In this document: positions 1,535 to 20,271 of the stretch, piece after piece
Layout: the number at the start of each line of letters is the position of its first letter
Position numbering within the stretch: position 1 is the stretch's first letter
From: Candidatus Saccharimonadota bacterium
GTDB lineage: Bacteria > Patescibacteriota > Saccharimonadia > Saccharimonadales > Saccharimonadaceae
Assembly: GCA_023898645.1 (NCBI GenBank)
Contig: CP060232.1
Coordinates: forward strand, 420,001 to 452,000
Direction: 5' to 3'
Length of the DNA stretch: 32,000 nt
The notes under the pieces: model-generated
Seen by the model: the letters and a program-made list of their open reading frames with translations, nothing else
Database searches by the model: none
What the model was told of the DNA's origin: nothing
Position numbers and translations under genes: made by a program

Positions 1535-3973
1535 ATGAAGCGATACAATCCGACAGAGATAGAACCCAAGTGGCAACAATTTTGGGATGAAAAAGGCACG
1601 TACGTGGCTGATCTTGCTAGTGACAAGACCAAATATTACGCCTTGAGTATGTTTAATTACCCGAGCGGTGCCGGAATTCATATCGGGCATGCTATGAACT
1701 ACACCATCAGTGACGTTATGGCACGATTTAAGCGACAGCAGGGCTACGAAAGCTACCATCCGGTTGGTTGGGACGCTTTTGGATTGCCGGCCGAGAACTA
1801 CGCTATCAAAACTGGCGTATCGCCGCAGCAAAGCATGAAATCCATCATCCCTGGCTACCATAAACAGTACAAAGCCATGGGCTGGAGTAACGATTGGACC
1901 AAAGAAATCGCCACTCATGAGCCCGAGTATTATAAGTGGACACAATGGATCTTTGCGCAGATGTACAAAGAGGGTTTGGCTTATCAAGACAGCCGTATGC
2001 AGTGGTGGTGCGACAAGGACAAGACGGTCCTTTCGAACGAGCAAGTAATTGATGGCAAGTGCTGGCGTCACGACGGACCGGACGACCCGCTGGTCGCTAA
2101 AAAAGAAATCAAACAATGGTTTTTCAAAATCACCGAATATGCTGACGAGTTGCTCGAAGCAACAGACGCGCTGGATTGGACCGAGAGCGTCAAGCTGGCG
2201 CAAAAGAACTGGATTGGTAAGTCGCAAGGTGCGGAAGTTGATTTCAAGGTTGACGGTTCAGATGAAAATGTTCGCGTATTTACGACTCGCCCAGACACTC
2301 TTTACGGTGCAACATTCCTTGTCATGGCACCCGAACATCCGCTCGTAGCAAACATTACGACCGATGAGCAAAAACAAGCGGTCGATGAGTACGTAAAGGA
2401 TTCAACCAAAAAATCTGAACTCGAGCGCATGGAAAGCAAAGAAAAGACGGGTGTATTCACCGGCGCATACGCGATTAATCCAGCAAGTGGCGAAAAAGTC
2501 CCGGTCTGGGTTGCTGACTATGTGCTGTATGGCTACGGCACCGGAGCTATCATGGCTGTGCCTGCTCACGATGAGCGTGACAATGAGTTCGCGCAGAAGT
2601 TTAACTTGCCGATAGTTGAAGTCGTGCAAAAACCAGAAGGCGAAGAAGGCGTCTGGCATGACGAAGGCGTCATGATAAATAGTGGCGAGTTTAACGGATT
2701 AAATAGCAGCGAAGCTCGCGAAAAGATCGTTAATAGCCTAGAGGCGCAGGGTATAGGTGAATCGAAAACAACCTTTAAAATTCGTGATTGGTCGGTGAGT
2801 CGTCAGCGTTACTGGGGTGCACCGATTCCGATTATCAACTGTCCAACTGACGGTACGGTTATCGTTCCAGACGAGGATTTGCCTGTCGTTCTACCTGAAT
2901 TAAAGGACTTTGCACCGAGTGGCGATGGCCGCAGTGCTCTCGCTCGTGCCGATGATTGGCTACAGGTGAAATGTCCGAAGTGTGGCGGCGATGCTGAGCG
3001 TGAAACCGATACGCTAGATACGTATATTTGTAGTAGCTGGTATTTCTTGCGCTACCTAGACCCGACAAACGCTGAATTGCCTTTTGGTAAGGACCGCGCA
3101 GATAAGTGGCAGCCAGTTGATTTTTATAACGGTGGTGACCACGCTACGGCACATATGATTTATGCTCGATTCGTGACGAGATTCCTGCACAAACAGGGCC
3201 TGCTCGAAAATCCAGAGCCGTTCAAACGGTTCCTGTTTAACGGTAAAGTTACGGCGCACGACGGCCAGATGTTCAGTAAGAGCAAGGGCAACGGCGTCGA
3301 CCCGCTCGAAATCATCAACAGCGGCTATGGTGCCGATTCGTTGCGCACTTACTTGATGTTTGCCGCACCGCTTGATCTATGGATCCGCTGGGACGAAAAG
3401 GGCGTGCCTGCAACCTATAGGTTCCTCAATCGTGTTTGGAATTTGGTTCAGGAATTTAACGAAACTAACGAAGGCGAAAAGTCTGACGCCGTACTTAAGG
3501 CTGTTCACCCAGCAATTAAAAAGGTAACGTCTGACCTCGAAGATCAAAAATACAATACCGCCATAGCGGCTATGATGAAGCTGACAAATGATTTATATGA
3601 ACTCAAAGTCAAAGAGAGGTTCAGCGATCGTGATAATTGGAGGTTTGCGTTGGAGTCTCTCGTTGCAATGGTTGCGCCGTTTGCGCCACACATCGCCGAA
3701 GAACTGTGGCATCAGCTTGGTCACGACACATCCGTACATCGCGATAGCTGGCCGCAGTGGGTTGATAAGTATTTGGTTGGCGATAGTATGACCATTGTCG
3801 TACAGGTAAATGGTAAGCTTCGCGCAACACTCGAAGTACCGCTTGATGCAAACGAAGACGACATCAAATCTCAAGCCCTTGCTGCTGAAAATGTTGTTAA
3901 GTTCATCGGCGACAAAGAGCCTTTCAAGGTGATCTACGTGCCCAAAAAACTAGTCAACGTCGTCGTAAAATAA
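1535..3973 (+). CDS. leuS: leucyl-tRNA synthetase
   Basis: 812-aa ORF with the class I HIGH motif (GIHIGHAMNY), a KMSKS-like FSKSKGNG motif, and LeuS-type editing and anticodon-binding regions. Confidence 0.95.
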   Translation: MKRYNPTEIEPKWQQFWDEKGTYVADLASDKTKYYALSMFNYPSGAGIHIGHAMNYTISDVMARFKRQQGYESYHPVGWDAFGLPAENYAIKTGVSPQQSMKSIIPGYHKQYKAMGWSNDWTKEIATHEPEYYKWTQWIFAQMYKEGLAYQDSRMQWWCDKDKTVLSNEQVIDGKCWRHDGPDDPLVAKKEIKQWFFKITEYADELLEATDALDWTESVKLAQKNWIGKSQGAEVDFKVDGSDENVRVFTTRPDTLYGATFLVMAPEHPLVANITTDEQKQAVDEYVKDSTKKSELERMESKEKTGVFTGAYAINPASGEKVPVWVADYVLYGYGTGAIMAVPAHDERDNEFAQKFNLPIVEVVQKPEGEEGVWHDEGVMINSGEFNGLNSSEAREKIVNSLEAQGIGESKTTFKIRDWSVSRQRYWGAPIPIINCPTDGTVIVPDEDLPVVLPELKDFAPSGDGRSALARADDWLQVKCPKCGGDAERETDTLDTYICSSWYFLRYLDPTNAELPFGKDRADKWQPVDFYNGGDHATAHMIYARFVTRFLHKQGLLENPEPFKRFLFNGKVTAHDGQMFSKSKGNGVDPLEIINSGYGADSLRTYLMFAAPLDLWIRWDEKGVPATYRFLNRVWNLVQEFNETNEGEKSDAVLKAVHPAIKKVTSDLEDQKYNTAIAAMMKLTNDLYELKVKERFSDRDNWRFALESLVAMVAPFAPHIAEELWHQLGHDTSVHRDSWPQWVDKYLVGDSMTIVVQVNGKLRATLEVPLDANEDDIKSQALAAENVVKFIGDKEPFKVIYVPKKLVNVVVK

Positions 3974-3976
3974 AAT

Positions 3977-4006
3977 CAGCCCGTCGCACATGTGTGCGAC
4001 GGGCTG
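3977..4006. terminator. 14-bp perfect hairpin between convergent leuS and the small membrane gene; U-tract only on the minus-strand side
   Basis: CAGCCCGTCGCACA-TG-TGTGCGACGGGCTG. On the minus strand it is followed by ATTTTATTTTAC. Confidence 0.7.
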
Positions 4007-4014
4007 AACTTCGA
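4002..4014. repeat. 13-nt motif GGCTGAACTTCGA, inverted partner of 4318-4330 (12/13)
   Basis: The reverse complement of 4318-4330 is GGCCGAACTTCGA. The motif lies 10 nt past the P1 stop and overlaps the terminator stem. Confidence 0.7.
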
Positions 4015-4024
4015 TGGCTGGACG

Positions 4025-4303
4025 TTAGTCGGCGTCTTCTGTGAAATGATTGACGTTGAAGCGCCAAAGTATTCCGGTCAAAAGACTCATAACTAAGAAT
4101 CCGCACACGGCAATCGTGGCGTCGTTACGTACGAACCGTGTGATATCAAGTAGCCAGCAAACGAAGAAGCCAATTGCTGCAACAGCGCAGGCCGCTTCGG
4201 TGGTTTCGAGAACTTGCTTATCATTGCTCACTCTCATGAGACCGCGAACAATGACGTAGGCGATGAACGGCGTCCAGGCTAGCACTATATGCACATAATC
4301 CAT
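4025..4303 (-). CDS. small 3-TM membrane protein P1 (92 aa from ATG; track ORF begins at an upstream TTG)
   Basis: ORF with three hydrophobic segments, its own promoter and terminator. ACAGAAAG lies upstream of the ATG, as for P4. Confidence 0.55.
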   Translation of the reverse strand: MDYVHIVLAWTPFIAYVIVRGLMRVSNDKQVLETTEAACAVAAIGFFVCWLLDITRFVRNDATIAVCGFLVMSLLTGILWRFNVNHFTEDAD

Positions 4304-4315
4304 AGTCAATCTTTC

Positions 4316-4338
4316 TGTCGAAGTTCGGCCACCTGGTC
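4316..4338. repeat. 23-nt exact repeat, copy 1 (TGTCGAAGTTCGGCCACCTGGTC) in the P1 5' leader
   Basis: Identical to 5038-5060. Confidence 0.9.
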
Positions 4339-4367
4339 GATCGACCGACCGGTGAATGGCTAAATAT

Positions 4368-4396
4368 ATTTAACCATAAAAATCATAAAATTACAA
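4368..4396 (-). promoter_or_regulatory. promoter of P1: TTGTAA-17-TTAAAT (minus strand)
   Basis: The hexamers are read on the minus strand. 22/29 positions are identical to the P4 promoter at 5514-5542. Confidence 0.5.
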
Positions 4397-4408
4397 TACA
4401 TTGTACAT

Positions 4409-4441
4409 AAAAAATAAGCCCGCCACTTGGTAGTGACGGGC
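4409..4441 (-). terminator. intrinsic terminator of the P3-P2 unit
   Basis: Hairpin GCCCGCCAC/GTGACGGGC (one mismatch), followed on the minus strand by TATTTTTT. Confidence 0.65.
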
Positions 4442-4451
4442 TAAACTTCGA
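4439..4451. repeat. 13-nt motif GGCTAAACTTCGA, inverted partner of 5040-5052 (11/13 plus one G-U on RNA)
   Basis: Lies 13 nt past the P2 stop and overlaps the terminator stem. Confidence 0.65.
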
Positions 4452-4464
4452 GGGACAACAAAGT

Positions 4465-4734
4465 TTATTTCACGCGGTCTCGTTGCTCATTCTGATACGC
4501 ATACTCTCCGAGTAGCGCAGCACCGCCCCATACGACAGCGCCGACAGCGGCGGCCCACGTGCTATGTACGATGCCAGCCAGGTGTAGCACGATGCAAATT
4601 GTAAGCACGGCTCCAGACAGTTCAAGGGAGCGCAGGAAGAACATCACGATTTTTGCTTCGTCGCCTGTAAAGAATGCTGCGACAAATAATGAAAGTACTG
4701 GCCACAGGGCGAAGAATATCACTAAATTTTGCAT
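4465..4734 (-). CDS. small 3-TM membrane protein P2 (89 aa), paralog of P3
   Basis: ATG start. Shares MQNL/VQNV N-termini and the LHLAGIVHS / LHIAGTIHS motif with P3. Confidence 0.6.
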   Translation of the reverse strand: MQNLVIFFALWPVLSLFVAAFFTGDEAKIVMFFLRSLELSGAVLTICIVLHLAGIVHSTWAAAVGAVVWGGAALLGEYAYQNEQRDRVK

Positions 4735-4753
4735 AGCCGTTACGACCTTTCGA

Positions 4754-5023
4754 TTACGTTCGGTAGCCTAGTTCTCGCCACGGTAGGTGGTCAAGGAGTA
4801 GAGCAATTACACCGGATCCGATACAGTAGAAAGCTGCAAAAATGAGATTGCTGTGAATCGTCCCGGCAATGTGTAGCAGGGCAAAGGTGCCAAAGCAGAC
4901 AGCGCTGATACTAAACAAGCGGATCTCAAACCGAATAAATGGTATGTCACTAGCGAAAAACCGTGAAGCAATGAAATATTGCGGCCCGGTAAGTATCGCC
5001 AGAATCGTCAATACATTTTGCAC
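4754..5023 (-). CDS. small 3-TM membrane protein P3 (89 aa from GTG; track ORF starts at an upstream TTG)
   Basis: GTG at 5023 gives VQNV..., aligned with the MQNL start of P2, and the same length (89 aa). Confidence 0.55.
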   Translation of the reverse strand: MQNVLTILAILTGPQYFIASRFFASDIPFIRFEIRLFSISAVCFGTFALLHIAGTIHSNLIFAAFYCIGSGVIALLLDHLPWRELGYRT

Positions 5024-5037
5024 ATGGAGTCCCAATT

Positions 5038-5060
5038 TGTCGAAGTTCGGCCACCTGGTC
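5038..5060. repeat. 23-nt exact repeat, copy 2, in the P3-P2 5' leader
   Basis: Identical to 4316-4338. Confidence 0.9.
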
Positions 5061-5085
5061 AGGTGACCATGAGATAGCTGACTTT

Positions 5086-5113
5086 ATTATAACAAAAAAA
5101 TATAAATTAGCAA
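5086..5113 (-). promoter_or_regulatory. promoter of P3-P2: TTGCTA-16-TATAAT (minus strand)
   Basis: Hexamers read on the minus strand. The -35 overlaps the U-tract of the P4 terminator. Confidence 0.5.
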
Positions 5114-5147
5114 AAAATGATCAACCCCTCGTCAAAAAGACGAGGGG
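5111..5147 (-). terminator. intrinsic terminator of P4
   Basis: CCCCTCGTC-AAAAA-GACGAGGGG hairpin, followed on the minus strand by TTGATCATTTTTT. Confidence 0.7.
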
Positions 5148-5169
5148 CCGACCTACAGAGCTGAGTTGA

Positions 5170-5451
5170 TTAAGTGCGTGTGCGAGGGTGATCGTGACGG
5201 ACATTGAGCCAAAAGCCCAAGAACATCACGGCGAAACCGATGATTATACTGGGAACTCCGACTTGAAACCACGCCATTTGAAGTTCGGTCGGAACTTCAT
5301 TGCGGCTGCTGACCACGCGGCCAACAATCACGAATACGAAGCCGATGAACATCACGAAGACGCCGGTTCCTTGAAAGCCCTTTACCTCTTTCCAGTTGAG
5401 TACCGGAACGAAGATGAAGAGAGCCAGAATCCCGCAGGGGATCAACCACAT
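5170..5451 (-). CDS. small 3-TM membrane protein P4 (93 aa from ATG; track ORF starts at an upstream TTG)
   Basis: ATG at 5451 is preceded by ACAGAAAGGG. Three hydrophobic segments. Confidence 0.55.
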   Translation of the reverse strand: MWLIPCGILALFIFVPVLNWKEVKGFQGTGVFVMFIGFVFVIVGRVVSSRNEVPTELQMAWFQVGVPSIIIGFAVMFLGFWLNVRHDHPRTRT

Positions 5452-5513
5452 TGTAAAACCCTTTCTGTAGGTACATGTGACTGCAGGGAGTGTACCCTCC
5501 AATCAGTAATTTA

Positions 5514-5542
5514 ATTATAGCATAAACATCATAAAAAAGCAA
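5514..5542 (-). promoter_or_regulatory. promoter of P4: TTGCTT-17-TATAAT with the TTTATGCTATAAT module
   Basis: Read on the minus strand. Confidence 0.55.
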
Positions 5543-5548
5543 TAACTC

Positions 5549-5577
5549 TTGAGCTCTAGGCACAAAAATGCTATAAT
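5549..5577 (+). promoter_or_regulatory. promoter of rpmF: TTGAGC-17-TATAAT (TGc extended -10)
   Basis: Hexamers and spacing read directly from the sequence. Confidence 0.55.
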
Positions 5578-5617: not shown

Positions 5618-5773
5618 ATGGCAGAACCAAAAAAACAGAGTAGCCCTCGAAAAACGGGTCTACGTCGTAGCCACTTGGTACTTAAGTTGGCTCGTCGCGT
5701 CAATGGGACGTCACCTGTTAAAGTGAAGACAACTAAAAACGAAACAGGCAAAAAACTCGCAAAGAAAGCATAA
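5618..5773 (+). CDS. rpmF: 50S ribosomal protein L32 (51 aa; below the ORF-track cutoff)
   Basis: RBS AAAGGAGA lies 8 nt upstream. Translation MAEPKKQSSPRKTGLRRSHLVLK... has the L32-type basic N-terminus with RRSH. Confidence 0.7.
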   Translation: MAEPKKQSSPRKTGLRRSHLVLKLARRVNGTSPVKVKTTKNETGKKLAKKA

Positions 5774-5820
5774 ACGCGATACACTAGAGTAAATCATTAA
5801 CAAGAAAGAACCAAAGAGTA

Positions 5821-6282
5821 ATGGCATCAAACCGTCACTTGGGTAGGATCGTCGCACTACAGTCTCTATACGAATATGAGTTTCGTGTACAGGCTGAGGA
5901 TAAAAGTGCCGCGGTAGACGACATACTTAGCCGCAATCTTGACCGCTACGAGCAAGAGATCGAAGACACCGACTTTGTGTCTCAGTTGGTCCATGGCGTC
6001 CTTGAGAAACAGGATGATCTTGACGACCAGATTCGCCCTCTTGCGCCTGAGTGGCCACTGGAGCAAATCGCACGTATCGATCGCAATATTTTGCGACTCG
6101 GTCTGTACGAATTGCTCTACCGTGGCGAACACGTGCCACCAAAGGTAGCAATCAACGAAGCGGTTGAACTCGCCAAAGCATTTGGTTCTGACAACTCAAG
6201 CAAGTTCATAAACGGCGTGCTCGGCACGGCGTACCGAACGCTTGTGGAGGCCGTACCGGATGCCGACACCAAAGTTCAATAA
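5821..6282 (+). CDS. nusB: transcription antitermination factor NusB
   Basis: 153 aa with a typical NusB N-terminus (RIVALQSLYEYEF) and C-terminal AINEAVELAKAFGSDNSSKFINGVLG. Confidence 0.85.
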   Translation: MASNRHLGRIVALQSLYEYEFRVQAEDKSAAVDDILSRNLDRYEQEIEDTDFVSQLVHGVLEKQDDLDDQIRPLAPEWPLEQIARIDRNILRLGLYELLYRGEHVPPKVAINEAVELAKAFGSDNSSKFINGVLGTAYRTLVEAVPDADTKVQ

Positions 6283-8817: not shown

Positions 8818-9651
8818 TTAGTTTGGCGGTTTGTTGGCGGCTTCGATCAGCAGAGGCGTCAGCTCTTTAACCAACGCTTCCGCGATCTCGGATTCAGGCT
8901 CATCTGCGGTGGATTCCGTAGATTCACTTGATTCCTTGGCGTCAACCTGTGCATCCACTTCGGCTTCACGGCTTGACCAGAACTCACGCTTGATTTGCTT
9001 GAGTTCGGGGCCACGGACTTCATTAGCCCAGAGCTTGAAGGCAACGAAACTGGGTCTCGTTTCCTTGTCGTCATAGCGGTTTGCTTTTGTCTCGATTTGA
9101 GCCAGTGCAACATCGACACGATCAAGCTCTGCCTCGAGGCCTTGGCAATACCAGTCCGCCTCTTCGATCATGGCGTATGGCTTGACGGCCGTGTCGTCTT
9201 TGTCTGCAGCGAGTGACTTACCCGGCTGCATTTCGGACGCTACGACAATCAAGAACGCTGATTGAATGCCTTTGACCTGGAAATCCGTCAAGACGGATGT
9301 GTCGGAAAGTTGTCCCATCCAATACCATTTTAGGATCTTGGCGTGGACACTTTCGAGCGGTCCGTAGCACAGCTCTGCGACGAGTCGCATTGCCGCGTAC
9401 TTTTGCTTGTCATTCCAGGCCATGATGCCGTACGACCGCCCCTTTGGGGTTTTGGCCTGTGTACGTTGACGGTCCTGGATGAATAGTTCGACGACCAGAT
9501 CACAGGTCAGACGACGTACGACCTCTCTGGCCGGCGTCACCTTTCTGTATACGGTCTTTCTCGTTCGCTTGTCAGTGAACGAGTAGGGCTCGTAGATGAT
9601 CTTGTCGTAGCGAGCGGGTACGCTCTTTTTCGACTCTTGGCTGTTCACCAT
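8818..9651 (-). CDS. orphan protein A (277 aa), acidic Ser/Glu-rich C-terminus
   Basis: ATG preceded by CAGGGAG. Has its own promoter and terminator. No recognisable motif. Confidence 0.65.
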   Translation of the reverse strand: MVNSQESKKSVPARYDKIIYEPYSFTDKRTRKTVYRKVTPAREVVRRLTCDLVVELFIQDRQRTQAKTPKGRSYGIMAWNDKQKYAAMRLVAELCYGPLESVHAKILKWYWMGQLSDTSVLTDFQVKGIQSAFLIVVASEMQPGKSLAADKDDTAVKPYAMIEEADWYCQGLEAELDRVDVALAQIETKANRYDDKETRPSFVAFKLWANEVRGPELKQIKREFWSSREAEVDAQVDAKESSESTESTADEPESEIAEALVKELTPLLIEAANKPPN

Positions 9652-9704
9652 GTTAACTCCCTGTAGGTACTTCGCATCGACACGGTGTCGACAGCAATAG
9701 GGTT

Positions 9705-10934: not shown

Positions 10935-11594
10935 ATGAGAAAGTTCCAAGTAATCACCTTGTTTCCCGATATGTTTACGGGTGTATTTGGCAGTTCTATG
11001 ATGTGGAAGGCGCAGAAAGATGGCAAAGTTGAGTTGTCGACGGTAGATCTACGCCAGTTTGGTTTAGGGCCACGCAAAACGGTTGATGACACTCCGTATG
11101 GCGGTGGTGACGGCATGTTGCTGATGGCTGAGCCTTTATTTGCAGCTGTTGAGGCAGCCAAAAAGAATGACTCTGATGCTAAAGTGCTGCTAATGACGGC
11201 TCGGGGGCGGCGTTGGAAGCAGGAGGCTGCTCAAGCGCATGCCGATAGCAATGATAGCTATATATTAATTTGTGGTCGCTACGAGGGTTATGACGAACGA
11301 ATAACCACACTAGTAGACGAGCAGATTAGTGTAGGTGACTATGTACTGACAGGTGGCGAATTACCGGCTATGACGGTAGTAGACAGTGTCGTACGGCTGA
11401 TACCTGGCGTGCTCGGCGGTGAAATGAGTGCCGAGATTGAAAGTTTTAGCGATGGCGAGACGCTTGAGTTTCCGCAATACACACGTCCAGAAGAATTTCG
11501 AGGCATGAAAGTGCCAGAGGTATTACTCAGTGGAAATCACGCTGCAATTGCCAAGTGGCGAGCAGAGAACTCTCTGAAGGCAGACAAAGAATAA
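10935..11594 (+). CDS. trmD: tRNA (guanine37-N1)-methyltransferase
   Basis: TrmD motifs GRYEGYDERI and LLSGNHAAIAKWR. Confidence 0.9.
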   Translation: MRKFQVITLFPDMFTGVFGSSMMWKAQKDGKVELSTVDLRQFGLGPRKTVDDTPYGGGDGMLLMAEPLFAAVEAAKKNDSDAKVLLMTARGRRWKQEAAQAHADSNDSYILICGRYEGYDERITTLVDEQISVGDYVLTGGELPAMTVVDSVVRLIPGVLGGEMSAEIESFSDGETLEFPQYTRPEEFRGMKVPEVLLSGNHAAIAKWRAENSLKADKE

Positions 11595-11600
11595 AGTAAA

Positions 11601-11621
11601 GACCCGTCACGAGGACGGGTC
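11601..11621. terminator. hairpin shared by convergent trmD and gene C
   Basis: GACCCGTC-ACGAG-GACGGGTC. It overlaps the stop codon of gene C and has a T-rich tract on the minus side. Confidence 0.6.
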
Positions 11622-11948
11622 TGTGGATTTGGAAAGAAGGTTTTCCCAGCTGCCTTCGTTGGCGATTTGCTCAACATAGGACGGCTGCCAGCCGAGATAC
11701 TCTGCGAACTGCGCAAGGCAATCCAGCATGTCATCACACCGCGTACGCAGGTAAATGCGCGTTTGATTGGCATAGTGCTCACACACTTTCGCCTCTTGGA
11801 TTTGCTCGTTCAGTTTGGTCAGCTGCTCCTCGTATTCGAACAAGAAGGTCGCTGGCTTGGGTAGAATTGCTTGGACGAACTCAGCAGGGTAGCCGTGCCA
11901 CTGGACGAACGGGTCGCAGCAGCTGAGTTGGATGTCGTCGTCGTTCAC
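11607..11948 (-). CDS. orphan protein C (113 aa, GTG start)
   Basis: RBS AGGAG lies 4 nt before the GTG, with a consensus promoter upstream. No recognisable motif. Confidence 0.55.
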   Translation of the reverse strand: MNDDDIQLSCCDPFVQWHGYPAEFVQAILPKPATFLFEYEEQLTKLNEQIQEAKVCEHYANQTRIYLRTRCDDMLDCLAQFAEYLGWQPSYVEQIANEGSWENLLSKSTDPSS

Positions 11949-18828: not shown

Positions 18829-20271
18829 GTGGATGAATCTTTGCTTTTCATTATTATAGGTGGGGTTTTGGCAATTAGTGTGCTTGTTGCGCTTGTGGCT
18901 TCAAATGCCGGCGTGCCGGCATTGGTTGCATTTTTGGGATTCGGTATGCTGCTTGGCGTGGATGGTCCGGGTCATATTGGGTTTACAGATGTAGGCCTGG
19001 CGCAGGCTGTCGGTACGATCGGTCTAGTAGCGATTCTGTTTGAAGGTGGTTTATCGACATCGTTAAGGCGGTTGCGCGAAGCGGCTGTGCCAGCGGCGTT
19101 GCTTAGTACGGTCGGCGTTGCTGTCACGGCATTACTAACGGGAGTCGCTGCGCAAATTATATTTAAGCTACCAATACTCGAGGCTTTGCTACTCGGCGCC
19201 GTGGTGGCGTCGACCGACGCGGCTGCCGTGTTTTCGACGTTTCGTGTTTCACATATTCGAAGACGCTTGGCACGTATACTCGAGGCTGAGTCGGGTGGTA
19301 ACGATCCGACGGCGATTGCTCTTACTGTCGGTATTATTAGCTGGATTCAACAGCCTACATATCATTTTGGTAACGTTGTACTACTTCTCGTTCAGCAATT
19401 AGGCATTGGTTTATTGGTAGGTTTAGCTCTGGGTAAGCTTGCTATGTATGTGTTTGCTCGCTTGCCGCATAGTATCGGCGCCTTTGCGCCTGTAGCGTCT
19501 GCGTCTGCAGCATTGTTATCGTTTGGTGTTGCGGGTTTGTTTGGCGGCAGTGGTTTTTTGGCAGTATACATTGTGGGTCTGGCAATCGGTAGTACGCCAT
19601 CGCGTTACCGTGGGCCACTAACGTTGTTCCATGAAGGATTGGCATTTTTGGCACAGGTAACGATGTTTATTATCATGGGTATTTTTGTGGTTCCACATAC
19701 TCTATGGAAAATTGCGTTACCTAGTATTATATTGACGCTAGTATTGATAGTAATCATTCGTCCGGTTGCGGTATGGATATCGATTCCGCTTGGTAGACTG
19801 ACTACTCGTGAGCGAGCGTTTTTAGGTTGGGCAGGTTTGCGCGGTGCGCTACCAATTATCTTGGGAATGTATGTATTGTCAGCCGGCTTGCCGCACGCGC
19901 AGTTTATTTTTAATACTGTCTTTTTCGTTGTGTTGTTTTCGGCGCTTATACAGGGAACCACGCTCAACTGGGTGGCTAAGCGCCTTGGTGTACTTGATAA
20001 ATTACCAAGCGACAAAGAGTCGCGTCATAGGGACTCGATTGAGAAGATCTACTTTCACGTGGCGCCGCAACACTCCATCGCCGGCGCTGCGGTGCGAGAA
20101 GTGGGATTGCCACCGAGAGCTCACATAATTGAAGTTAAACGTCGTTCAAAAATTATTGAAATCGATAATCAAACGGTCATTCGTCCACGAGATCGACTGT
20201 GTGTTGAAGCACCTTATTCTATTCATCCTGAAATCGAGGATGTGTTCATGCGTTGGCGTCGACGCGTGTAG
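18829..20271 (+). CDS. K+/H+ (CPA1, NhaP2/CvrA-type) antiporter with a C-terminal TrkA-C/RCK_C domain
   Basis: GTG start. About 12 TM segments. The C-terminal VREVGLPPRAHIIEVKRRSKIIEIDNQTVIRPRDRL matches the TrkA-C pattern. Confidence 0.75.
   Translation: MDESLLFIIIGGVLAISVLVALVASNAGVPALVAFLGFGMLLGVDGPGHIGFTDVGLAQAVGTIGLVAILFEGGLSTSLRRLREAAVPAALLSTVGVAVTALLTGVAAQIIFKLPILEALLLGAVVASTDAAAVFSTFRVSHIRRRLARILEAESGGNDPTAIALTVGIISWIQQPTYHFGNVVLLLVQQLGIGLLVGLALGKLAMYVFARLPHSIGAFAPVASASAALLSFGVAGLFGGSGFLAVYIVGLAIGSTPSRYRGPLTLFHEGLAFLAQVTMFIIMGIFVVPHTLWKIALPSIILTLVLIVIIRPVAVWISIPLGRLTTRERAFLGWAGLRGALPIILGMYVLSAGLPHAQFIFNTVFFVVLFSALIQGTTLNWVAKRLGVLDKLPSDKESRHRDSIEKIYFHVAPQHSIAGAAVREVGLPPRAHIIEVKRRSKIIEIDNQTVIRPRDRLCVEAPYSIHPEIEDVFMRWRRRV

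Follow-up and report, generated by a model that had tools for sequence, protein, structure and literature searches.

The stretch of DNA considered here (the window) comprises 32,000 nucleotides (nt) from a Candidatus Saccharimonadota bacterium (contig CP060232.1, positions 420,001 to 452,000). It contains four minus-strand open reading frames (ORFs) for small hydrophobic proteins, P1 to P4, in the gap that separates leuS (1535-3973, +) from nusB and an rpmF-like gene (5618-6282, +). Two transcription units in this gap, unit 1 (P1 alone) and unit 2 (P3-P2), share a 23-nt sequence in their leaders, part of which is complementary to a sequence that follows the last stop codon of each unit. These repeats are probably RNA elements, in which a leader box located 5' of the ribosome-binding site pairs with a trailer box located between the stop codon and the terminator. 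The boxes are truly complementary, the helix is predicted thermodynamically, the design is conserved in a sister species, and most other small-gene units at the locus in related genomes have it too, with different sequences and compensatory changes. A first-pass annotation of this DNA had offered three readings of the repeats, namely pairing between the untranslated regions (UTRs) at the 5' and 3' ends, competition with terminator folding, and the ends of a miniature mobile cassette. The first is well supported by the transcript folds, by compensated or wobble changes in a relative, and by recurrence of the arrangement in neighbouring units.

The 23-mer, TGTCGAAGTTCGGCCACCTGGTC on the plus strand, is present in exactly two copies in the window, at 4316-4338 and 5038-5060, and a motif search confirms both as exact; there is no third match in the window even at 3 mismatches, with 0 expected (100 shuffles). 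The 13-mer TCGAAGTTCGGCC, when up to 2 mismatches are allowed, has 5 matches in the window, all of them within 4002-5290, compared with 0.65 expected and no shuffle that reached 5. The sites are 4002-4014 (-, 1 mismatch), 4318-4330 (+), 4439-4451 (-, 2 mismatches), 5040-5052 (+), and a fifth in the P4 coding sequence (CDS). (The fifth is accounted for by a perfect 7-bp palindrome at 5280-5298, GAAGTTC-CGACC-GAACTTC in mRNA sense, which is composed of heptamers that also occur in the leader and trailer boxes; this palindrome is probably due to chance, because it is not conserved in the P4 orthologue of the relative L045, described below.) The inverted pairs 4002-4014/4318-4330 and 4439-4451/5040-5052 are 92% and 85% complementary, respectively, and cross pairs are found too. 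Thus an inverted-repeat search bears out the match that had been reported between the 3' half of the 23-mer and the trailer boxes (12/13 for unit 1, 11/13 plus one G-U for unit 2), and the unit lengths of 329 bp and 614 bp are also correct. In unit 1 the trailer box begins 10 nt past the TAA stop, in unit 2 it begins 13 nt past the TAA stop, and in each case the box shares 4-5 nt with the start of the terminator stem, in agreement with the earlier statement that they lie 10-13 nt past the stops and reach into the 5' arms of the terminators. Between the two units the 23-mer is identical at 23/23 positions, versus 40/98 in the non-coding flanks. A search of ~190 kb of related loci, which had been proposed as a check, finds the motif confined to these unit boundaries rather than scattered, and the 18-mer CAGGTGGCCGAACTTCGA gives 34 single matches, in unrelated high-GC taxa and at chance level, in a genome contig collection in which the source genome is not included.

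Unit 2, which has one terminator after P2, is read from the minus strand, like all the features of both units. Its promoter-like site, TTGCTA-16-(TG)TATAAT (5086-5113), has 10/12 consensus matches and an extended -10 element and is conserved in L045; the predicted transcription start site (TSS) is at ~5079, giving a predicted leader of ~53 nt. This leader contains a hairpin, GGUCACCU-GACC-AGGUGGCC (5049-5068; -11.7 kcal/mol), the 3' arm of which lies within the second copy of the 23-mer (5038-5060; GACCAGGUGGCCGAACUUCGACA in mRNA sense), followed by the leader box GAACUUCGA (5040-5048) and by a Shine-Dalgarno (SD)-like GGGAC (5029-5033) ahead of P3. P3 (4754-5023) and P2 (4465-4734) are paralogous 89-amino-acid (aa) membrane proteins with three helices, which belong to a very small family. 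The start of P3 is most likely the GTG at 5023, which gives MQNV... (compare MQNL... in P2), rather than the TTG at 5035. (P3 is absent from the gene calls of all public assemblies of the species, some of which call a spurious ORF on the opposite strand instead.) The unit 2 trailer contains GUCCC (4452-4456), the complement of the leader GGGAC, with which it is predicted to pair, then the trailer box UCGAAGUUUAGCC (4439-4451), whose core UCGAAGUUU (4443-4451) pairs with the leader box, and finally an intrinsic terminator hairpin with its U-run (4417-4442; -19.3 kcal/mol).

Unit 1 is organized in the same way. Its putative promoter, TTGTAA-17-(TGg)TTAAAT (4368-4396), was read by eye and is missed by a consensus scan; the predicted TSS is at ~4361 and the predicted leader is ~58 nt long. 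The leader hairpin, UCACCGGUCG-GUCGAU-CGACC(A)GGUGG (4329-4355; -14.1 kcal/mol), again has its 3' arm within the 23-mer (4316-4338), and the leader box GAACUUCGA is at 4318-4326. P1 (4025-4303) is a 92-aa membrane protein with three hydrophobic segments. It is followed by the trailer box UCGAAGUUCAGCC (4002-4014), whose core UCGAAGUUC (4006-4014) pairs with the leader box, and by an intrinsic terminator (3976-4007; -29.1 kcal/mol) at the convergent end of leuS. Another promoter region of the locus, the divergent one between the P4-type gene and rpmF (window 5549-5577 on the plus strand, 5503-5560 on the minus strand), is well conserved in the relatives L041, L043, and L045, with TTGCTTTT...TATGCTATAAT on the minus strand and TTGAGC-17-TATAAT on the plus strand; this conservation supports the predicted TSSs.

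When the predicted transcripts are folded at full length (unit 1, 396 nt; unit 2, 672 nt), the minimum free energy (MFE) and centroid structures of both contain a leader hairpin, a 9-bp long-range helix, and a terminator hairpin, mutually adjacent. Thus, folding of leader and trailer, another check that had been proposed, does yield the helix in each case. The leader hairpins with their differing 5' arms are reproduced, and in both units the 5' half of the 23-mer supplies the 3' arm. The helix, GAACUUCGA/UCGAAGUU(C/U) (trailer UCGAAGUUY), bridges leader and trailer across ~310 or ~600 nt, and the terminator hairpin begins immediately past its trailer strand. Its mean pair probability is 0.78 in unit 1 and 0.97 in unit 2, and the fold of the whole unit 1 transcript has a z of -5.2 relative to shuffles. 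Unit 2 has additional GGGAC/GUCCC pairing that lengthens the helix and takes in the SD-like stretch of P3. The 9-bp helix alone is worth -11.1 (unit 1) and -9.5 (unit 2) kcal/mol; the 13-nt pairing is worth -17.3 and -15.5 kcal/mol and competes with the outer 3-4 pairs of the -29 and -19 kcal/mol terminators. The isolated leaders are no more stable than shuffled sequence (z of -0.2 and -0.3); the signal resides in the long-range pairing together with conservation, not in leader stability alone. An Rfam scan of the region gives nothing at the gathering threshold, with only terminator-like noise below it (E up to 1).

Insight into the constraints on this arrangement comes from relatives. The leuS-nusB region was taken from nine of them, with LeuS identities of 79-90%; the number of small minus-strand genes in the gap ranges from one to four, and their kinds vary. 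In L045 (LeuS 83% identical), there is one P4 orthologue and one homologue of P2 (45% identity). The promoter and leader of this latter unit align with those of unit 2, and its trailer and terminator, which lie beside leuS, align with those of unit 1. Its leader is GACCGGAUGGCCGAACUUCGACA; all three leaders have an identical stretch of 16 nt, UGGCCGAACUUCGACA, set in non-coding flanks of 41-60% identity. The two differences in the L045 leader are both in the hairpin arm, where the change of GGUGG to GAUGG is compensated by a change of CACC to CAUC opposite. The L045 trailer is AUGAAGUUCAGCC, which contains the stop codon, and the transcript is predicted to fold with hairpin, helix (pair probabilities of ~0.9), and terminator in the same arrangement. 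Two of the three trailer-box substitutions are C-to-U opposite G, a change that would be tolerated by an RNA helix but not by a match at the DNA level; the third breaks a terminal A-U pair, which is lost in L045.

The unit that the window has in addition, relative to L045, is bounded by direct repeats rather than inverted ones. A junction between direct repeats is seen in a 694-bp contig, L005 (ENA ERZ27309241 k141_435841), in which window positions 4932-5060 are joined to 4339-4903, leaving a single 23-mer between the P3 start region and the promoter and hairpin of unit 1. This is the junction expected from unequal exchange between the 23-mers, as in a tandem duplication of the 722-bp segment between them, or from circle formation by that segment, and it may have arisen in this way, although an assembly chimera is possible.

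The proteins provide a second view of how the two units are related. P1, P2, and P3 (89-92 aa) each have three hydrophobic segments by hydropathy, and an AlphaFold2 (AF2) model of P2 is a three-helix bundle with a predicted local distance difference test score (pLDDT) of 79; a fold search with this model gives no significant match in the PDB. The small proteins have no match above threshold in Pfam, NCBIfam, or PADLOC and no similarity to known toxin or defence families. P2 is known from one species only, in the NCBI metagenome-assembled genome (MAG) and a few Logan/ENA contigs that are 99.9-100% identical. When P2 alone and then a P2/P3/L045 profile were compared with 5.8 billion proteins, only the query proteins themselves were recovered, and an exhaustive protein search gives 4 clear family members and 3 marginal ones. 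P2 and P3 are 27% identical (E of 3e-7). P1 has no detectable direct similarity to either, but it matches a protein designated P0127 (31% over 55 aa, E of 1e-9), which is itself a marginal match of the P2/P3 profile in the exhaustive search. Because of this link, P1, P2, and P3 are best seen as diverged tandem paralogues, and the two units as tandem copies of one transcription unit; the supposed cassettes would therefore be duplicated units and not mobile elements. The trailer core is nearly identical between the units even though the coding parts have diverged almost beyond recognition. Such divergence, set against 23/23 identity of the 23-mer, points to constraint on the element, and an identical 23-mer within flanks of 41% identity argues for constraint as well, perhaps with gene conversion as a contributor.

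The same architecture, built from other sequences, is present in most of the remaining small-gene units. The test set consisted of 16 small minus-strand units located between leuS and nusB in ten related genomes; statistics that compare cognate with non-cognate pairs in an alignment-free manner were used, as a MAFFT alignment of concatenated leaders and trailers misplaced paired indels. For nearly every other small gene in these gaps, a leader box of its own is located just 5' of the SD, and its complement, the trailer box, abuts the terminator stem. In the window, this is seen for P4 (5170-5451, -), a separately terminated 93-aa membrane protein with orthologues in relatives: its leader box, ACCUACAGA (5464-5472, -), lies directly 5' of the SD AAAGG, its trailer box, UCUGUAGGU (5151-5159, -), abuts the predicted P4 terminator (5119-5153, -), and the pair probability is 0.98. 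The P4 pair ACCUACAGA/UCUGUAGGU is found in L041 as well. Elsewhere the boxes are ACCUAUAGA/UCUAUAGGU (P4 of L045), ACCGCAGAA/UUCUGUGGU (L043) and ACCUACGA/UCGUAGGU (L042), each of which has a paired indel, GCCUAGAAA/UUUCUAGGC (L057), UCCGAACC/GGUUCGGA (also L042), AUUCCGUUCUU/AAGAGCGGAAU and UAGGAGAUU/AAUCUCCUA (L056), and AAUCGUU/AACGAUU (L058). Within the P4-like class, double substitutions and paired indels of one or two bases have occurred on both strands of the helix. An explicit anti-SD is present in the trailer in several relatives, as in the pair UAGGAGAUU/AAUCUCCUA of L056_gA.

Quantitatively, the RNAduplex energies of cognate leaders and trailers sum to -307.8 kcal/mol versus -229.9 +/- 13.3 kcal/mol for permuted pairs (n=16; 0/20,000 permutations), and a contiguous-helix score is 296 versus 235 +/- 11 (0/50,000). 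When one unit per box family is used, this latter score is exceeded in 36/50,000 permutations. A leader/trailer helix of at least 7 bp is present in 12/16 units. In these 12 the trailer strand starts from 3 nt before to 23 nt after the end of the stop codon (at most 15 nt in 11/12), and the terminator stem directly follows it; folding of the full transcripts places the helix in the MFE structure of 11 of them, with mean probabilities of 0.78-0.99. The units in the gap have a mean score of 18.5, with 11/16 at 18 or above, versus a mean of 13.4, with 8 at 18 or above, for 106 other genes in the same DNA (Mann-Whitney 3e-5, Fisher 1.7e-7). Orthologues of a DUF308 membrane protein have no consistent helix, and thus the design is not universal for monocistronic membrane genes.

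Taken together, the positions of the boxes suggest how end-to-end pairing could work. The start codon follows the leader box at a distance of 4-20 nt, the trailer box is 0-15 nt past the stop and thus within a ribosome footprint of it, and the helix is flush with both the hairpin and the terminator. The 9-bp helix would close the whole mRNA, located as it is between the leader hairpin and the terminator hairpin, and could stack on both; the closed form would represent a quiescent, nuclease-protected state in which both ends of the mRNA are buried. Because the trailer box is so close behind the stop codon, a terminating ribosome should melt the helix, and because the leader box is so close to the start codon, an initiating ribosome should compete with the helix for it. 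The helix would then persist only on untranslated mRNA, with a consequence for decay (as in Bacillus subtilis hbs), for re-initiation, or for both. Within this frame, stabilisation of the mRNA is tentatively taken as a somewhat more likely output than the others; fold-back repression of translation, also a tentative suggestion, is ranked second, and a hand-over of ribosomes from stop to start is a minority option.

Several points weigh against end-to-end pairing or limit what it could do. A convincing helix is lacking in 4/16 units. The GAACUUCGA helix rests on three sequences, among which the changes are one-sided and wobble-compatible, with no double compensatory change. A 9-bp helix does not require as much conservation as the 16-nt invariance and the exact 23-mer display, and a sequence-specific partner, either protein or RNA, may be involved too. 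All of the transcript boundaries, promoters, and TSSs are consensus predictions (by eye in the case of the unit 1 promoter), and a 9-bp helix that spans 300-600 nt may not form in vivo on mRNA that is being translated. Finally, when the 3' UTR is added, the predicted accessibility of the SD falls in most P4-type units (0.63 to 0.32, 0.60 to 0.16, and 0.63 to 0.27), but it rises from 0.51 to 0.80 in unit 1, goes from 0.35 to 0.36 in L045, and falls mildly from 0.63 to 0.49 in unit 2. Given that accessibility does not fall in unit 1 or in L045, translational repression is unsupported for the GAACUUCGA class, and in these models SD sequestration is not a general property of that class.

Pairing between 5' and 3' UTRs is established for hok (PMC9841398), aapA1 (PMC6733600), icaR (PMC3868564), and hbs (PMC5737220), and the earlier statement that there is no described element with this layout was therefore too strong. 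The closest match to the mechanism proposed here is B. subtilis hbs (PMC5737220), a short, highly structured monocistronic mRNA in which a 14-bp 5'/3'-UTR pairing modulates RNase access and ties stability to the initiation of translation. It differs in that hbs encodes a histone-like protein, its RNase Y and RNase J1 sites have been mapped experimentally, and no family-wide recurrence has been described for it. In icaR of Staphylococcus aureus (PMC3868564), a motif in the 3' UTR pairs with the mRNA's own ribosome-binding region and controls translation and decay, which resembles the anti-SD trailer element of unit 2 (GUCCC/GGGAC) and of several units in relatives. However, icaR is a single-gene case with a long 3' UTR and encodes a regulator; here the 3' UTR is ~40-50 nt, the box abuts the terminator, the arrangement recurs across many small membrane-protein genes, and the unit 1 helix lies beside the SD rather than on it.

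The two remaining precedents, hok and aapA1, raise the question of whether the units are modules resembling a type I toxin-antitoxin system, in which the small membrane proteins would be toxic, the fold-back would keep the mRNA inert, and an antisense RNA would neutralise the activated form. This special case of the pairing reading is unlikely. It fits with small hydrophobic proteins from a tiny, fast-evolving family, with a helix predicted to join the 5' and 3' UTRs in both units, and with pairing of the unit 2 SD-like GGGAC to the trailer GUCCC and the anti-SD trailers of several relatives, and it has a precedent in the tac/fbi fold-back of hok/sok (PMC9841398 and references 8-10 there), where the 5' partner is also just upstream of the translation start region. 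In Helicobacter pylori aapA1/IsoA1 (PMC6733600) there is likewise long-distance 5'-3' pairing in the mRNA of a small membrane protein, with leader hairpins that control accessibility of the start region. Yet Hok is a protein of ~50 aa with one helix and the AapA1 toxin has ~30 aa, whereas the proteins here have 89-93 aa and three helices, unlike single-helix peptides of <60 aa. No Sok-like antisense RNA or mok-like leader ORF is found at this locus; the plus-strand promoter-like matches in the AT-rich promoter regions are weak (9/12) and all face away from the leaders, with none in L045. A defined antisense antitoxin and 3' processing, as in aapA1, are not evident either. The hok fbi element occupies the very 3' terminus, where trimming removes it, but the trailer box here is upstream of a strong terminator hairpin, so that 3' trimming would not remove it. 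In addition, SD sequestration is not predicted for unit 1, there is no match in Rfam or to known toxin or defence families, and the genes occupy a conserved housekeeping position.

The excess conservation of the leader suggests a second alternative, in which the 23-mer, or its invariant 16-nt core, is the site of a trans-acting factor (a DNA operator past the TSS, an RNA-binding protein, or a small RNA (sRNA)) that co-regulates both units, with the trailer complement secondary or coincidental. The identity of 23/23 against 40/98 in the flanks, the invariance of 16 nt across two species, which is more than pairing requires, and the small palindrome CGAAnUUCG are all in keeping with such a site. 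It would, however, leave unexplained both the conserved complementary trailer boxes and the matching trailers of families with quite different leader boxes; moreover, there is no complementary sequence elsewhere in the window or in ~190 kb of related loci, and no regulator gene is adjacent. As the sole explanation a trans-acting factor has a low probability, slightly below that of a toxin-antitoxin-like module, although it may act in addition to pairing.

That the repeats belong to a mobile or recombining DNA cassette, with 13-bp inverted repeats serving as termini like those of a miniature inverted-repeat transposable element (MITE), as integron-like cassette boundaries, or as invertase sites, is very unlikely. 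Inverted repeats do bracket the 329-bp and 614-bp segments, the number and kind of small genes at the locus differ among relatives, and L005 joins the two 23-mer copies as recombination between them would. But the promoters and terminators lie outside the repeats, which therefore bound no self-contained unit, with the boxes inside the transcription units; there is no target-site duplication, and the outer flanks of unit 1 (ending in TGTGCGACG and starting with ACCTGGTCG) are unrelated; no transposase, integrase, or invertase is encoded in the 32-kb window; and the motif is not dispersed in the window or in ~190 kb of related loci. The boxes also vary between families while remaining cognate within a unit and tolerating G-U, which is unexpected for recombinase sites. 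The L005 junction, being between direct repeats, indicates homologous exchange or an assembly chimera and not transposition through terminal inverted repeats (TIRs), and the paralogy of P1-P3 likewise speaks against the cassette that had been suggested. Two specific candidates were rejected. Integron attC sites are 57-141 bp long, with the order R''(RYYYAAC)...R'(GTTRRRY), and belong to promoterless cassettes with IntI nearby; here, boxes in the order AAC...GTT are 303-588 bp apart and enclose an ORF, the intergenic pair is GTT...AAC, the units have promoter-like sites of their own, the window has no integrase, and the order and spacing of the core sites are wrong for attC. An inverton was set aside because all public contigs that carry P2 or P1 are colinear with the window, with no empty site or inversion (the sampling is shallow), and because the window has no recombinase. 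The proposed comparison of strains, carried out as look-ups of P1 and P3, gave no deletion or inversion variant.

A functionless relic of tandem duplication, with common descent behind the unit similarity and chance behind the inverted match, is scarcely probable: P1, P2, and P3 are paralogues, the terminators are homologous, and the promoters are weakly similar, but the 23-mer is 100% identical where the coding sequences have diverged beyond direct recognition, the element is kept in a species with 83% LeuS identity (L045), and most neighbouring units have leaders and trailers that are complementary through other sequences, at a level well in excess of the controls. It is just as hard to credit the second of the original readings, in which read-through (antitermination) would result from pairing of the leader box with the terminator's 5' arm, since, although the 13-nt pairing overlaps 4-5 nt of each stem and the extended duplex reaches -17.3 versus -11.1 kcal/mol, no more than the outer 3-4 pairs of a stem of 11-14 are involved, the terminators are far more stable (-19 to -29 kcal/mol) and remain complete beside the abutting 9-bp core helix in the MFE and centroid folds, and the trailer boxes of relatives are flush against the stem without entering it.

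The type of mechanism that end-to-end pairing represents is already known; what is new is the way it recurs across a whole locus as an architecture with natural covariation, together with the stacking between a leader hairpin and a terminator. A search of the Saccharibacteria literature found no description of such pairing elements in this phylum. The architecture (leader hairpin, closing helix, and terminator) is fixed in position and variable in sequence, and in about ten Saccharibacteria species it is found at a single locus, in most of the small membrane-protein genes there. Should the helix form in vivo, it would provide a concrete handle on post-transcriptional control in the Patescibacteria, or Candidate Phyla Radiation (CPR), which have few classical regulators; it would single out the orphan three-helix membrane proteins as being under tight control and perhaps sensitive to dosage; and it would yield a simple rule for searching other genomes, namely a trailer box that abuts a terminator and is complementary to an SD-proximal leader.

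A broader version of end-to-end pairing, which is conceivable though on balance rather improbable, would extend it to a generic 'closed-loop' mRNA frame used by most small membrane-protein genes of the leuS-nusB gap and by a few genes elsewhere. Such a frame would act as a translation-coupled switch, opened by terminating ribosomes and closing on idle mRNA, and it would be reused upon gene duplication or exchange, with the 23-mer as a point of recombination (as at the L005 junction). The pairing would then bring stop and start together with both mRNA ends buried, and it would constitute a lineage-wide principle of post-transcriptional design in an ultra-small, regulator-poor bacterium rather than a one-off element.

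This locus is a rearrangement hot spot. In some of the more distant relatives (P0006, P0024, P0033, and others), LeuS has ~960-980 aa with a C-terminal NUDIX domain; owing to this fusion, the small-gene gap, rpmF, and nusB are absent there between leuS and the NUDIX gene. When metagenomes were scanned with the C-terminus of LeuS, 8 loci were recovered, none with comparable small genes beside leuS. The LeuS proteins closest to that of the window are from Saccharibacteria/Saccharimonadales. NCBI labels the source MAG 'Candidatus Nomurabacteria bacterium', a label that is probably wrong, because the nearest named LeuS proteins are all from Saccharibacteria or Saccharimonadales.

A few genes outside the gap have complementary ends as well. 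At window positions 8818-9651 (-), a gene for a 277-aa protein without a Pfam domain has an SD region, GGGAGUUA, that is complementary to UAACUCCC, which starts at the gene's own stop; in L043, the gene at the matching position (9100-9654, -) has AGGGG and, right after its stop, UCCCCCU. These two genes possibly represent another 5'-3' pairing, placed here directly on the SD. In L045, a gene at 11298-11801 (-), which has the second-highest score of the 106 control genes, has a leader, CGAGAGGAU, that includes the SD and is complementary over 9 bp to a trailer, GUCCUCUCG, just before the terminator. The top control score belongs to a Na+/H+ exchanger gene at window positions 18829-20271 (+), with a G-U-rich complement of 12 bp, GAAAUGUCGUCU/GGGCGACGUUUU, over a span of 1.4 kb.

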